A stretch of DNA of 64,000 nt from a virus. Positions 7,296 to 35,000 of this stretch are shown one piece after another; the stretch's first letter is position 1; each line of letters starts with the position of its first letter. The stretch covers positions 1-64,000 of IMG/VR virus record IMGVR_UViG_3300025168_000056, one strand, 5' to 3'. The notes beneath the pieces are model-generated. The model worked only from the letters and a program-made list of their open reading frames with translations. It had not been told where the DNA came from and ran no database searches. The position numbers were made by a program, and so were the translations under genes.

Positions 7296-9119
7296 ATGGC
7301 TGGTATTATAGATAGGTTAACCGAAGGTGTTGTTAACCGTGATATGCGCGCTGAAGGTCACGCTTTGTTAACAAAGTGGGAGCGCACAGGTCTTCTCGAA
7401 GGCTTGAAGACTGACACAAAAAAGAACTGCATGGCTCGACTCCTTGAGAATCAAGCTAAGGAGCTTCTTAGAGAGAGTAGCACAATGGGTGCTGGTGATG
7501 TTGAGGGCTTCGCTGCCGTCGCATTCCCAATCGTCCGTCGTGTATTCGCAGGACTGATCGCAAACGATCTCGTTTCCGTTCAGCCGATGAGTCTCCCAAG
7601 TGGACTCATCTTCTTCCTCGACTTTGTTTACTCACCAGATCTTGGTGACACAACTCAGTCTGCGGCAGATCGCTTTGGTAACGTTAAAGAGAAGTCCATT
7701 TATGGTACTGATCAGGTTGCTAAGGAAATCCAAGAGGGTGTTGACCTTATCAACGGCACAAGCAAGTTTGACCTTTCCGGTCCTCGTACTGTTGGTGCTC
7801 GCGGTTATGCGTTCGGCTCCCCATCGGGTTCGAACGAGACCACAATTGCACAGGCTGTTACTTCCGCTTCGGTCAAGGCAACATTCTTGCTTAACGGAAA
7901 CGTTAGTGCTGCTAACAAGAAGCTGATTCAATTTGATCCAGATCTTCTTGCTCTTACCGACGGCACTATTTCGGTTGGTATTGTTGACATTGAAAAGGAT
8001 GAGCATGACTCGTCAACCACAGGAGATCCCGACTATGATAACCTTGGTGCTTTCACTATCAACCTCGCAAACCTTGTTACTGCAGATTCTGCATTCACGA
8101 CTCTGACCGGTCAGGTTCGTCGTTTAACTCAGACTGTTTCGGCAGCTGAGGCAGCTACAACTGCAGCAGCTATCCGTTACGTCGTGGTTGGTACTAACGT
8201 TACCGCTGGTGCTACCGGTGCTTTCGATGGTGCTGTTGGTGCAATCGATATGTTGGTGTTCCCAGTGCGCGATCAGTATGATGCTGTTACTTCTGCCCCC
8301 GGTGCGGTTGTGGGTGACTTGTTTGGTCTTGAGGCTAACGAGCGTATCCCTGAGATCGACATCAAGGTGGACAGCATTGCTGTTACCGCTCAGACCAAGA
8401 AGCTGAAGGCGAAGTGGAGCCCAGAGTTAGGACAAGATCTTAACGCTTACCACAACCTTGACGCTGAAGTTGAGTTGACCTCGATCCTTTCGGAGCAGAT
8501 TGCTCTCGAAATCGACCGTGAGATCCTTGCCGACCTTGTTAACGGAGCTACTGCAGCTACTCGTTACTGGTCTCGTGCTCCGGGTCTGTTCGTCAACGCT
8601 GAGACTGGTGGAGAGCTTGGTGCTGCTTCTGCTGCTCCTGAGTTCACCGGTACCGTTTCTGAGTGGTACGAGACTCTCATTGAGACAATCAATGATGTTT
8701 CGGCTCAGATTCACCGTAAGACTCTGCGTGGTGGTGCAAACTTCATCGTTTGCGGACCTGAGACAGCTAACATCCTTGAATTCACCGCTGGATTCCGTGC
8801 TTCCGTCACTCACGACGATGAGACCGGTTCCGTTGGTGCAGTCAACGTTGGTTCGCTGAGCAAGAAGTTCGACGTTATCGTCGATCCCTACTTCCTGCGC
8901 AACGTGGTTCTCGTTGGTCGTCGCGGATCCTCTTTCCTTGAAAGCGGATACGTATACGCACCTTACGTCCCACTGCAGACCACACCAACTATCTTTGGAC
9001 CAGAAGACTTCGTGCCTCGCAAGGGCGTGATGACTCGTTATGCCAAGAAGATGGTTCGTCCAGATATGTACGGCGTCGTCGTCATTCGCGGACTCTTAGG
9101 TGAGGAAGGCTCCAGCTAA
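7296..9119 (+). CDS. Major capsid protein (T4 gp23-like)
   Basis: Motifs VQPMSLPSGLIF, KLKAKWSPELGQDL.AYH.LDAE.EL..ILS..I..EIDREI, YAPYVPL and GVMTRY. Confidence 0.95.
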   Translation: MAGIIDRLTEGVVNRDMRAEGHALLTKWERTGLLEGLKTDTKKNCMARLLENQAKELLRESSTMGAGDVEGFAAVAFPIVRRVFAGLIANDLVSVQPMSLPSGLIFFLDFVYSPDLGDTTQSAADRFGNVKEKSIYGTDQVAKEIQEGVDLINGTSKFDLSGPRTVGARGYAFGSPSGSNETTIAQAVTSASVKATFLLNGNVSAANKKLIQFDPDLLALTDGTISVGIVDIEKDEHDSSTTGDPDYDNLGAFTINLANLVTADSAFTTLTGQVRRLTQTVSAAEAATTAAAIRYVVVGTNVTAGATGAFDGAVGAIDMLVFPVRDQYDAVTSAPGAVVGDLFGLEANERIPEIDIKVDSIAVTAQTKKLKAKWSPELGQDLNAYHNLDAEVELTSILSEQIALEIDREILADLVNGATAATRYWSRAPGLFVNAETGGELGAASAAPEFTGTVSEWYETLIETINDVSAQIHRKTLRGGANFIVCGPETANILEFTAGFRASVTHDDETGSVGAVNVGSLSKKFDVIVDPYFLRNVVLVGRRGSSFLESGYVYAPYVPLQTTPTIFGPEDFVPRKGVMTRYAKKMVRPDMYGVVVIRGLLGEEGSS

Positions 9120-9149
9120 ATCTAGCTAAATAGTCTTTACTATACATGG

Positions 9150-9176
9150 CCCCCCTGTTAATTCAGGGGGGTTTTT
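9150..9176 (+). terminator. Intrinsic terminator after capsid gene
   Basis: CCCCCTG-ttaatt-CAGGGGG followed by GTTTTT. Confidence 0.85.
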
Positions 9177-9260
9177 GTATTTAATAAGTTTAAACTCTTA
9201 AATTTTTTCGCCGGTAAGTTTTTGAGATTTCCGTTTTTAGCTTTTTGTAGACTATTTATT

Positions 9261-9365
9261 ATAGCTTGAAATATTCTCCTTTGGGCGAGGCCACTGCCCA
9301 CAGAAAGATACTGTTCCGAGGTGGCTGGGACAGAATCATTGAATAGGACGAGTTATTGCAATAAC
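9261..9365 (+). ncRNA. Candidate structured cis-regulatory RNA leader (multi-stem junction, kissing loops)
   Basis: Four predicted stems plus loop-loop complementarity GCCAC/GTGGC. Sits between a late motif and an RBS. Confidence 0.45.
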
Positions 9366-9388
9366 ATAATAAAAGGAGAAATTAAATT

Positions 9389-9973
9389 ATGGGAAGAAGA
9401 TTAGGAAGAAAGAGATTATATGCTCTTGAAAAAGAAGGACAGTCGTTCAGCGGCTCCGTTGGAACCGGTATCTCTGGTTCGCTTGTTAGCCGTACAGTGC
9501 ATCGCGATGGGCAAAATGTAGTTACAGATATCGTTCTCGATTTGGGTACATCTGATGGACCCCTTAACTGCCCCGACATTAAGCGCAAAGTCATTGGATA
9601 TAGTGCTTCTGTCGACGGTGCTTTAACGCAGCCTGCACACCTTGGGTATGTGGGTCACATGGAAAGCGGTATCGTTACTTTGGTAGAGGCAACGTGTTTA
9701 GAGACACCTACTGGTGGACCAGCTAAAATTGAGCTTCAGTTCAACTCGTCCGCTACCGTCACTTATTCGGGATCTGCTGGCACAAGAGTCATGGAGGTAC
9801 CTGATACGATCGGTTCATCCTCGCAGATTTCTTATGATGCCGATGAGCTACAGGGCAAGTACCTGTATCTTGCATCTGGTGAACCGACTGATGCGGGCGC
9901 TGCGAAGAGAACATACACAGCGGGTAAAATCCATATTCGTCTGCACGGAACAATCATTCCGGACGATAAATAA
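9389..9973 (+). CDS. Hypothetical virion-associated protein
   Basis: RBS AGGAG, basic N-terminus, located between capsid and neck genes. Confidence 0.55.
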   Translation: MGRRLGRKRLYALEKEGQSFSGSVGTGISGSLVSRTVHRDGQNVVTDIVLDLGTSDGPLNCPDIKRKVIGYSASVDGALTQPAHLGYVGHMESGIVTLVEATCLETPTGGPAKIELQFNSSATVTYSGSAGTRVMEVPDTIGSSSQISYDADELQGKYLYLASGEPTDAGAAKRTYTAGKIHIRLHGTIIPDDK

Positions 9974-9986
9974 GGAGGAGTTATAA

Positions 9987-10154
9987 ATGGCTAAATCAGG
10001 CAAATTAAGACTTCTTATTGCTCAAAGACAAGCTGCAGCTAAGCCCACTCCAAAGGCAAAACCAGCCGCCCCTAAAAAGGCAGTTGCTTCGCCCCCGAAG
10101 AAGGCACCAGCAAAAAAGGTTGTCAAAAAAGTAGAGAAAAAAGAAGAGAAATAG
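9987..10154 (+). CDS. Small Lys/Ala/Pro-rich basic protein (55 aa, absent from ORF track)
   Basis: RBS AGGAGG. Translates MAKSGKLRLLIAQRQAAAKPTPKAKPAAPKKAVASPPKKAPAKKVVKKVEKKEEK and is followed by a terminator. Confidence 0.75.
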   Translation: MAKSGKLRLLIAQRQAAAKPTPKAKPAAPKKAVASPPKKAPAKKVVKKVEKKEEK

Positions 10155-10174: not shown

Positions 10175-10204
10175 AAACCCCCTCGCTTTTGCGGGGGGGT
10201 TTTG
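10175..10204 (+). terminator. Intrinsic terminator
   Basis: AAACCCCCTCGC-tttt-GCGGGGGGGTTT stem followed by a T-rich tail. Confidence 0.8.
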
Positions 10205-10243
10205 TTTGTGAGATCACTATTTAGAGAGTAGGAGAACATATGT

Positions 10244-34149: not shown

Positions 34150-35000
34150 TGAAAACGCCCTTGCGATATCCCGGCGGCAAATCCCGTGCCGTCAAGCATA
34201 TCCTACCCCACATCCCCGAAGGTGTCGAACGAGTTTGTTCGCCATTCTTCGGGGGTGGCTCAATAGAGCTAGCTTTAGCTAATCGTGGTATCCAAGTATT
34301 TGGCTACGACAAGATGAAGCAGCTTGTATGGTTTTGGCAGGGTCTGTGTGGCGACAGCAATAAGTTGGCTGATGAAGTAGAGAAGCTCCGAGAACAATAC
34401 CTGATTAGAAACGGCGACACCGTGACAGGGTGTTCCAAGGAGGCGTTCCATCAGTACCGCGAAGACCTGAAGATAGAAACGTTTATGTTCTCCTACGAGA
34501 GAGCAGCAAAATATTACATCATCAACAGGTCCGGGTTCTCTGGAGCTACGTTTAGTGGTGGTTGGTCCGAGAGAGCATCTTACGCAAGATTCACTGAATC
34601 TTCAGTGCAAAGACTCAGAGACTTTAACGCACAAAAATTTAGAGTGGATTACGCTGACTTTGAAGACGCTATCTTTTACCATCCAAAAGCTTTCTTATAT
34701 CTTGATCCGCCGTACATGTTAAAGGGTTCTCAGAATTCTCTGTACGGCGTTGATGGAAACTTGCATGATTCGTTTGATCATGAAAGATTGCACGGTATCT
34801 TAACAAACAGAACTGGCTGGCTAATGTCCTATAATGACTGTCCAGAAATCAGAGATATGTATAAAGATTATGAAATTGTTGAGGCAGAGTGGTCTTATGG
34901 TATGACTAATGTATATTCAAAAGAAGAGAAGAAAAAGAAAGCCGAAGAAGGCTACGTTAAAAAACAAAAACAGTCATCCGAGATACTAATTAAAGGGTAA
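34149..35000 (+). CDS. DNA adenine methyltransferase (Dam/D12 class)
   Basis: PLRYPGGKS, SPFFGGGS, YLDPPY and LMSYND motifs. Confidence 0.9.
   Translation: MKTPLRYPGGKSRAVKHILPHIPEGVERVCSPFFGGGSIELALANRGIQVFGYDKMKQLVWFWQGLCGDSNKLADEVEKLREQYLIRNGDTVTGCSKEAFHQYREDLKIETFMFSYERAAKYYIINRSGFSGATFSGGWSERASYARFTESSVQRLRDFNAQKFRVDYADFEDAIFYHPKAFLYLDPPYMLKGSQNSLYGVDGNLHDSFDHERLHGILTNRTGWLMSYNDCPEIRDMYKDYEIVEAEWSYGMTNVYSKEEKKKKAEEGYVKKQKQSSEILIKG

Follow-up and report, generated by a model that had tools for sequence, protein, structure and literature searches.

The DNA between a viral capsid gene and its downstream neighbour, at positions 9263-9388, is best explained as the structured 5' leader of a separate late transcript for a capsid decoration-like protein. 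Covariation among related viral sequences shows that the leader RNA folds into a three-way junction. This junction is closed by two stems, P1 and P1b, and its two hairpins, P2 and P3, are joined by a kissing-loop helix of 5-7 base pairs. As for what the leader does, moderate confidence goes to a cis-acting, bistable translational leader: one fold would leave the ribosome binding site free, and the other would mask it.

The analysis covers a window of 64,000 nucleotides, which is the whole stretch of DNA that was studied, out of the 77.8-kb IMG/VR virus record IMGVR_UViG_3300025168_000056. All positions are those of the window. The source is an uncultured marine myovirus that is T4-like and has a Gp23-type major capsid protein. 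All long open reading frames (ORFs) but one are on the + strand. An AGGAG-type Shine-Dalgarno (SD) sequence is found for 44 of the 54 ORFs in the window, so the host presumably initiates translation by way of the SD. The genes and signals around the leader are as follows.

7296-9119, + strand: Gp23-type major capsid gene (Pfam PF07068, E = 2.7e-73).
9148-9173, + strand: intrinsic terminator closing the Gp23-type capsid transcript (terminator scan: 10-pair stem with 7 G-C pairs, then a T run).
9251-9258, + strand: candidate late-promoter motif ACTATTTA, of the ACTAWTTA class (putative promoter function, from enrichment and conservation).
9374-9379, + strand: Shine-Dalgarno sequence AGGAGA (direct reading).
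9389-9973, + strand: ORF of 194 aa, probable capsid decoration/cement protein (ORF, AF2 model, fold matches).
9987-10154, + strand: ORF of 55 aa between the 194-aa gene and the next terminator, in the same transcription unit.
10175-10202, + strand: terminator closing the transcription unit (12-pair stem with 8 G-C pairs).

Given its own promoter motif and the terminators on both sides, the leader of ~125 nt belongs to a self-contained late transcription unit. Genomic context thus agrees with an earlier, sequence-only reading of this DNA, which had placed the element in the 5' leader of the gene downstream of the capsid gene. The next ACTATTTA motif after the terminator at 10175-10202 is at 10216.

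ACTAWTTA occurs 17 times in the window, with 14 copies on the + strand, where 5.0 are expected; none of 100 shuffles reaches this number. Many copies on the + strand lie 28-59 nt upstream of virion ORFs. The enrichment and these positions together make it a plausible late-promoter motif. The copies span 1313-62600, and those in the replication half are at 34985, 40164, 54649, 59791 and 62593. The sequence-only reading had separately noted a late promoter of this kind, and the two agree. From the start of the motif at 9251 to the ATG at 9389 the distance is 138 nt, compared to 28-59 nt for the other late genes in the window. Among the 69 homologues described below, the ACTATTTA-class motif is near-invariant, and its distance to P1 downstream is fixed. 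The transcript probably starts with the 5' strand of P1, from 9263 onward.

RNA libraries also contain pieces of this region. Six RNA-library runs have a few sequence words in common with it, and most contigs from four of these fall on the capsid genes of relatives. An identical contig of 261 nt covers 9091-9351, and another, of 194 nt, covers 9347-9521. Such contigs reveal neither starts nor strand and may stem from DNA carry-over, so no inference on transcription is drawn from them.

Folded alone, 9261-9365 has a minimum free energy (MFE) of -32.9 kcal/mol (z = -3.37; 1 of 200 shuffles matches it), and the MFE structure is exactly the three-way junction that the sequence-only reading had drawn. 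The pieces of that drawing can be read directly from the DNA. These are an outer stem of ATAGCTTG at 9261-68 with CGAGTTAT at 9349-56, an inner stem of TATTC at 9272-76 with GAATA at 9341-45, and a hairpin of TGGGC at 9282-86 with GCCCA at 9296-9300, which has the loop GAGGCCACT. A second hairpin pairs CTGTTCCG at 9311-18 with TGGGACAG at 9326-33 and has the loop AGGTGGC. The two loops are complementary, through GCCAC at 9290-94 and GTGGC at 9321-25, and a palindrome, GTTATTGCAATAAC, is present at 9352-65.

Some of this changes on closer analysis. Six pairs of the outer stem are supported (9263-68 / 9349-54), but the two outermost pairs are only 74% and 68% paired, and may fall upstream of the transcription start. 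P3 is prolonged by GAU/AUC at 9307-09 / 9335-37. The kissing helix can be extended to 7 pairs, 9289-95 / 9320-26, which end in G-U. The 7-pair version takes up U9326, which means that the eighth P3 pair drawn earlier, G9318-U9326, competes with the kiss. The resulting elements are given here in RNA letters.

9263-9268, + strand: 5' strand of P1, AGCUUG, pairing with 9349-9354.
9272-9276, + strand: 5' strand of P1b, UAUUC, pairing with 9341-9345.
9274-9282, + strand: pyrimidine junction strand UUCUCCUUU, an anti-SD-like upstream complementary sequence (conservation; MFE pairing with 9372-9380).
9282-9300, + strand: P2 hairpin UGGGC/GCCCA with a 9-nt loop, L2, GAGGCCACU (covariation).
9289-9295, + strand: kissing-loop strand in L2, GGCCACU, pairing with 9320-9326.
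9301-9306, + strand: purine-rich junction strand J2/3, CAGAAA (conservation).
9307-9337, + strand: P3 hairpin GAU.CUGUUCC / GGGACAG.AUC with loop L3, GAGGUGGCU (covariation).
9320-9326, + strand: kissing-loop strand in L3, GGUGGCU, pairing with 9289-9295.
9341-9345, + strand: 3' strand of P1b, GAAUA (covariation and divergent members).
9349-9354, + strand: 3' strand of P1, CGAGUU (covariation analysis).
9352-9365, + strand: perfect palindrome GUUAUUGCAAUAAC, either a hairpin of 5 pairs that closes a UGCA loop or a dyad/dimerisation site.

Relatives were collected from IMG/VR in several ways. Searching with the capsid protein leads to 80 loci, and with the 194-aa protein to 2. The leader itself has 9 clear relatives by blastn, at 70-99% nucleotide identity, and the first alignment of these already held compensatory changes. 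Over this range the downstream protein drops to ~30% identity or is replaced. The leader outlasts the divergence of the protein behind it, which is counted as selection on the leader.

A covariance model, R1, was built from P1, P2 and P3 only, with the kissing helix excluded. Two DNA pattern scans of IMG/VR for relatives complement it, one with the palindrome and one without. Model R1 has at least 81 matches, in at least 69 distinct IMG/VR sequences. Together with at least 5 divergent members this makes at least 74 distinct sequences in total. Among the at least 81 matches, every one with flanking sequence sits between a Gp23-type capsid gene and a gene that starts as MGxRR. In all members the element ends ~10 nt upstream of the SD.

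The element is present in only 9 of the 80 loci found through the capsid protein, and so marks a sub-lineage. Searches of GenBank phage isolates, by blastn with 8600-10000 and by tblastn with the 194-aa protein, both came back empty, so the element is not carried by any cultured phage. The closest GenBank capsid proteins, those of Microcystis phage Mel-JY01, Flavobacterium phage immuto and Rhodothermus RM378, are only 36-47% identical. Among the 120 chance matches listed by a pattern scan across bacterial and archaeal genomes, there are 0 true members.

Pairing holds in 93.3% of cells across the 69 distinct homologues, where shuffles give 83.7%, and double-change cells number 204, against 62 after shuffling. 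The covariation score is 0.346, where shuffling gives 0.177 and 0 of 500 shuffles reach the real value. If the partners are slid by 1-3 columns, the score is 0.079 at most.

The loop-loop helix was absent from the model that built the alignment. It is 100% paired in the 69 distinct sequences. Double changes turn C-G into G-C in 11 sequences, and A-U into G-C or C-G in 15. The kiss has four fully complementary versions: GCCAC/GTGGC, GCGGC/GCCGC, GCCGC/GCGGC and GCCCC/GGGGC. Its positions are among the top mutual-information pairs.

The same can be seen in the hairpins. P3 varies at almost every position and is still 95.6% paired, with double changes in 5 of its 7 core pairs, the top mutual-information pairs, and covariation in the 2-pair extension. 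P2 is 93% paired, and 4 of its 5 pairs have changed on both sides. P1, scored as 7 pairs, is 94.5% paired; this count includes the weak outermost pair 9262-9355, unpaired in 22 of 68 cells. Its changes are mostly one-sided, from U-A to U-G, and divergent members retain it as GACUUG/CGGGUC. P1b is 84.5% paired, and has been wholly replaced with compensation in some members, by CUGGUC/GACCAG (L021, L283) or GCGCG/CGCGC (L061).

The kiss, P2, P3 and P1b all have compensatory changes, and the structure is real. It was by such changes in homologues, above all in the loop-loop pairing, that the sequence-only reading held its drawing should be judged. They are present in the 69 distinct sequences, and support the junction-plus-kissing-loop topology as a whole.

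A mutual-information screen found the known helices only, plus a possible pair between J2/3 and J3/1, 9302-9339 (A-U in 52 sequences, U-G in 11), which may reflect a lineage effect. The junction strands vary far less than the stems. The CUCC core of UUCUCCUUU is present in all but one of the 69 sequences, and lies within a near-invariant UCUCCUU that is complementary to the SD. In J2/3, AGAAAG/GAAG is conserved throughout the alignment. One could speculate that J2/3 makes a groove contact.

G-U cells are frequent, and include an invariant G-U in the kiss and U-G pairs in P1 and P3. This makes the + strand the RNA strand. A feature at the DNA level, or an RNA from the minus strand, was rejected, since the many G-U cells would become A-C mismatches on the other strand.

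The near-invariant junction strand is where the second fold comes in. When the full leader is folded, the MFE structure has a 9-bp helix between UUCUCCUUU at 9274-82 and the SD region AAAGGAGAA at 9372-80. P1 and P1b are then lost, while P2 and P3 stay intact. Among 68 homologues, the predicted CUCC:GGAG pairing probability has a median of 0.62 and a range of 0-1. In constrained folds of these 68, the masked state is the more stable one for 43 and the junction for 25, and the two differ by a median of 1.0 kcal/mol, in an energy model that leaves out pseudoknot and tertiary contacts. For a transcript that ends just before the SD, the junction closed by P1 is predicted in 67 of the 68.

The duplex of UUCUCCUUU with its own SD region is at -11.8 kcal/mol. 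The SD regions of seven other late genes give -6.7 to -9.6, and one more gives -14.0. The cognate pairing of anti-SD with SD has an advantage of 0.2 kcal/mol over non-cognate pairings, which 1.5% of shuffles reach, and this comparison is confounded by relatedness. Both strands are near-invariant, and in the CCUCU variants a U-to-C change is uncompensated in the SD flank. The clade with a GC-rich P1b (L021, L061) has predicted masking of ~0 yet keeps UCUCCUUU, which means that the strand may be conserved for a tertiary or binding role. This leaves room for such a role of both the pyrimidine strand and the AGAAAG of J2/3.

The sequence-only reading had also expected an alternative fold, with the palindrome competing against the outer stem. 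An alternative fold is predicted, but its strongest form is the helix 9274-82 / 9372-80 and not the palindrome against P1. Palindrome and stem do overlap, but the supported overlap is only 3 nt (GUU), so this competition is weaker than had been suggested.

The palindrome at 9352-65 is unique in the window. Samples obtained independently of the pattern usually have GUUAUUGCAAUAA(C/U), with an outer pair that is G-C in 41 sequences and G-U in 28. Divergent members bear other perfect palindromes: GTTATCGATAAC, GGTTAACGTTAACC and GGTTACGTAACC. The clade of L021, L061, L283 and L268 has none, and other leader types of the same gene have a hairpin just upstream of the SD with a loop that is not palindromic. 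The G-U variants favour a role at the RNA level. Every palindrome variant is perfect through its centre, where each independent variant has a probability of 1 in 16 that its tetraloop is self-complementary by chance. A hairpin does not need this central symmetry, and its retention points to a symmetric dimeric binder or an RNA-RNA duplex. The survival of symmetry through sequence change is a separate puzzle, with a dimeric binder and RNA dimerisation as the two candidate answers.

The 194-aa protein behind the leader has no Pfam or PHROG family. Its ORF combines a conserved N-terminus, MGRRLGRKRLYALEK, with a variable jelly-roll body. Homologues are ~30% identical to the window protein, or in several contigs have an unrelated body of 265-309 aa. 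All versions of the gene behind the element begin with MG(N/S/K/R)RR(L/I/M)G.(K/R)RL.

In an AF2 model (pLDDT 86.7, from a 44-sequence alignment), a beta jelly-roll comes after an N-terminal helix. VIA ranks three chains of phage capsid cement/decoration proteins highest: 8h89_J (Z 6.8, rmsd 3.9, 134 aligned), 7eel_H (Z 6.6) and 7dou_4 (Z 6.3), where a VIA Z below 8 can stem from a common fold. Foldseek against the PDB gave nothing below E = 1e-3 for this model, and BFVD gave uncharacterised phage proteins only. The model and its matches are a moderate hint that the product is probably a capsid decoration/cement protein. This fits the place of the gene beside the capsid gene, and a protein whose anchoring N-terminus is conserved while its exposed body evolves fast.

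The N-terminal module (9389-9433 in the window) is found in ~60 loci. As MGxRR(L/I)GxKRL... or MGTKRVGLAR..ALIENLKREL, it heads wholly different bodies of 150-310 aa. It has the look of a common capsid-anchoring arm onto which different exposed domains can be swapped. The YALE-KEG of the window protein has some resemblance, at the level of letters, to the LxE site of the T4 prohead protease.

Loci without the element have other leaders for the same gene. L018, L039, L045, L051, L058 and L069 have a different leader of ~120 nt, with a GNRA-capped 5' hairpin, two more GC-rich hairpins and a shared tail, ACAUGAUUAUAAAAGGAGGG. It may be a second, unrelated family of structured leaders. L006, L007, L014, L020, L023, L029 and L072 have leaders of ~65 nt ahead of a version of the gene that starts with MGTKRVGW. 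These open with a hairpin, GGAAGGAG-AAA-UCCUUUC, in which an SD-like strand pairs with an anti-SD-like one, and continue with a UUAAUU/AAUUAA hairpin and the real SD. They look like a decoy-SD arrangement that echoes the anti-SD theme.

A bistable leader would work roughly as follows. It would act in cis on translation initiation, and probably also on the stability of the mRNA. During transcription the junction should form first, as the folding predictions suggest, holding UUCUCCUUU within P1b and J1-2. The palindromic hairpin, an A/U-rich spacer and then the SD follow the junction, and in this fold the SD would be free. Once the SD has been made, UUCUCCUUU could leave P1b and pair with AAAGGAGAA, which would mask the ribosome binding site and keep P2, P3 and the kiss intact. 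The balance between the folds, or the rate of refolding, might set how much protein is made, or for how long, relative to the capsid protein. Candidate triggers are time alone, Mg2+, and a protein or small ligand that binds to the conserved kissing-loop domain.

The main rival, which is fairly unlikely, is a constitutive stabiliser and translation enhancer: the junction would block decay that depends on the 5' end, the A/U-rich spacer and the SD would be open, and output would be high with no switching. P1 begins 4-5 nt past the promoter motif, and so probably contains the 5' terminus. Leaders of relatives without the element also open with a 5' hairpin, and place another directly ahead of the SD. 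Masking predictions that vary from 0 to 1 among homologues count against a switch. Nearly all homologues, 67 of 68, are predicted to have the junction before the SD is made, and the L021 clade is essentially without predicted masking. The product resembles capsid cement proteins, which are required in many copies, and a need in bulk suits an enhancer or stabiliser no less than it would a repressor. For mere protection, however, a simple hairpin suffices, and a three-way junction that has a covarying 7-bp kiss and near-invariant junction strands goes far beyond that. The 9-bp complementarity to the SD, and the near-equal energies of the two folds in most members, would also have to be a coincidence. 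A protein could instead shift the balance between junction and masked fold. In such a translational operator, which is rather improbable, a phage or host protein would bind the kissing-loop domain or the palindromic hairpin. The product's own Arg-rich N-terminus could be the binder, as the sequence-only reading had supposed, and control would then be autogenous, on the pattern of T4 gp32 or the leaders of ribosomal proteins. The element is tied to one gene context, as autogenous operators are, and the Arg/Lys-rich N-terminus is conserved also in proteins whose remaining sequence has been swapped. A hairpin just before the SD recurs in other leaders of the gene, and the dyad symmetry of the palindrome, kept through sequence change, would suit a dimeric binder. 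But the palindrome is missing in the L021 clade, and the same type of N-terminal motif (MGxKRxG...) is found in relatives with quite different leaders. Along with the AF2 model and the likeness to cement proteins, this makes the N-terminus more simply read as a capsid-anchoring arm, and leader binding by it lacks support.

More far-reaching readings make the kissing-loop junction the sensor of a new riboswitch-like class, for a metabolite, ion or protein, or have the loops and the palindrome build an intermolecular multimer for head assembly. Taken together these are doubtful. A new class of riboswitch for a small molecule or ion, with a pocket formed by junction and loops and a ligand that stabilises P1/P1b and so frees the SD, is very unlikely. 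The element's stems vary and covary around near-invariant junction and loop bases, a riboswitch-like pattern, and of its two mutually exclusive folds, which are close in energy, one masks the SD. Against this, the at least 81 matches, where they have flanks, include no metabolic or transport neighbour and no second context, no Rfam class was matched, and why a capsid accessory gene should sense a metabolite is not obvious. If a sensor it is after all, a cellular or phage signal would time or dose the capsid decoration protein. Assembly between RNA molecules is hardly credible as an explanation: L2, L3 and the palindrome would pair between molecules into dimers or rings, with a structural or packaging role, in the manner of phi29 pRNA rings or of the ROOL and GOLLD multimers held together by kissing loops. 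Covariation is equally compatible with loop pairing within and between molecules. The 9-nt loops with 6-7 paired bases resemble the geometry of the HIV-1 dimerisation site (DIS), and all four palindrome variants are self-complementary through the centre, as a duplex dimer needs and a hairpin does not. Yet the RNA continues directly into the SD and the ORF with no terminator, and packaging motors of the T4 type are not known to use RNA. By geometric estimate, a 10-nt A-rich J2/3 could also bridge a coaxial stack of P2, kiss and P3 within one molecule. The bistable leader is the favoured reading.

The sequence-only reading had not recognised the RNA and called it undescribed. This agrees with a scan of the 64-kb window with Rfam 15 at gathering thresholds, which matched no family. 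A search of 9130-9450 at E <= 10 gave only weak matches, over the preceding terminator at 9148-9173 and to terminator-like parts of unrelated families. Twelve homologous loci had no Rfam 15 match at the gathering level either. Nor was there a match to the Rfam families of hammerhead, twister-sister and other ribozymes, of pRNA, or of the IMES, manA and wcaG marine RNAs.

Known structured cis-regulatory RNAs are very rare among the structural (late) genes of DNA phages, and none is known to govern a capsid accessory protein. The family is widespread in marine T4-like viromes, with 74 or more distinct sequences. Since covariation proves its tertiary contact, the RNA is ready for structural and biochemical study. 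If it is indeed a switch, phages regulate capsid decoration post-transcriptionally, and a natural, compact kissing-loop three-way junction is added to the known RNA folds. No description of this leader RNA family was found in the literature searched, with the proviso that it may be among more than 10,000 unnamed structured-RNA candidates from IMG/VR published in 2023, some of which adjoin capsid genes (PMC10690425).

Several known systems have something in common with this leader. The leader of T4 gene 32 is also a structured, pseudoknotted phage 5' leader, and controls translation. It is however an H-type pseudoknot bound by gp32, so both gene and fold differ. The pRNA of phi29 is likewise a phage RNA of ~100 nt with a three-way junction and two complementary, covarying loops. 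But pRNA belongs to podoviruses of the phi29 type, is free-standing, and pairs between molecules at the portal. The present element leads into an ORF of a T4-like myovirus and has no Rfam match. That it runs into an SD and ORF without a terminator argues against a free-standing, pRNA-like RNA.

The loop-loop pairing itself resembles the L2-L3 contact of the lysine riboswitch and the kissing loops of the HIV-1 DIS. In both, ~6 contiguous Watson-Crick pairs form between 9-nt loops whose 5' side carries unpaired purines. As a whole the architecture is unrelated, and no Rfam family matches. In addition, DIS loops are self-complementary and pair between molecules, while here L2 and L3 are complementary to each other.

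The purine riboswitch, to which the sequence-only reading had likened the topology, is similar in outline. Like RF00167, the element is a three-way junction in a 5' leader with interacting P2 and P3 loops, and a downstream platform competes with P1. Covariation upholds the junction and the loop contact, but membership of the class is rejected. No covariance-model match to RF00167 was found even at E = 10, and among the at least 81 matches, those with flanks have a capsid-gene context only and are never beside purine genes. The junction sequences differ too. The loop contact of the purine riboswitch consists of two G-C pairs within base quadruples, where the present one has 5-7 Watson-Crick base pairs.

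A parallel in logic is found in RNA phages. In MS2 and other Levivirus members, the leader of the maturation (A-protein) gene has a 5' upstream sequence that pairs with an SD ~100 nt downstream, closing a multi-hairpin domain (PMC4615214). The MS2 maturation gene is translated only while this leader is in an alternative, pre-equilibrium fold (PMC4615214). Here 9274-82 can similarly pair with 9372-80 around P2 and P3, and the fold that leaves the SD free is predicted to come first. The upstream complementary sequence can thus reach the SD across a hairpin domain in the MS2 manner, with 9 pairs in the MFE structure. The differences are also clear. MS2 is a replicating RNA genome, and this is a late mRNA of a DNA phage; the long-distance helix covaries in MS2, and its strands are near-invariant here. 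The open state of MS2 is a small metastable hairpin, where the present leader has a conserved, covarying three-way junction, along with kissing loops and a palindrome that MS2 lacks. There is no sequence similarity. By these comparisons the leader would belong with the structured 5' leaders that mask an SD, and its tertiary contact is unusually well proven.
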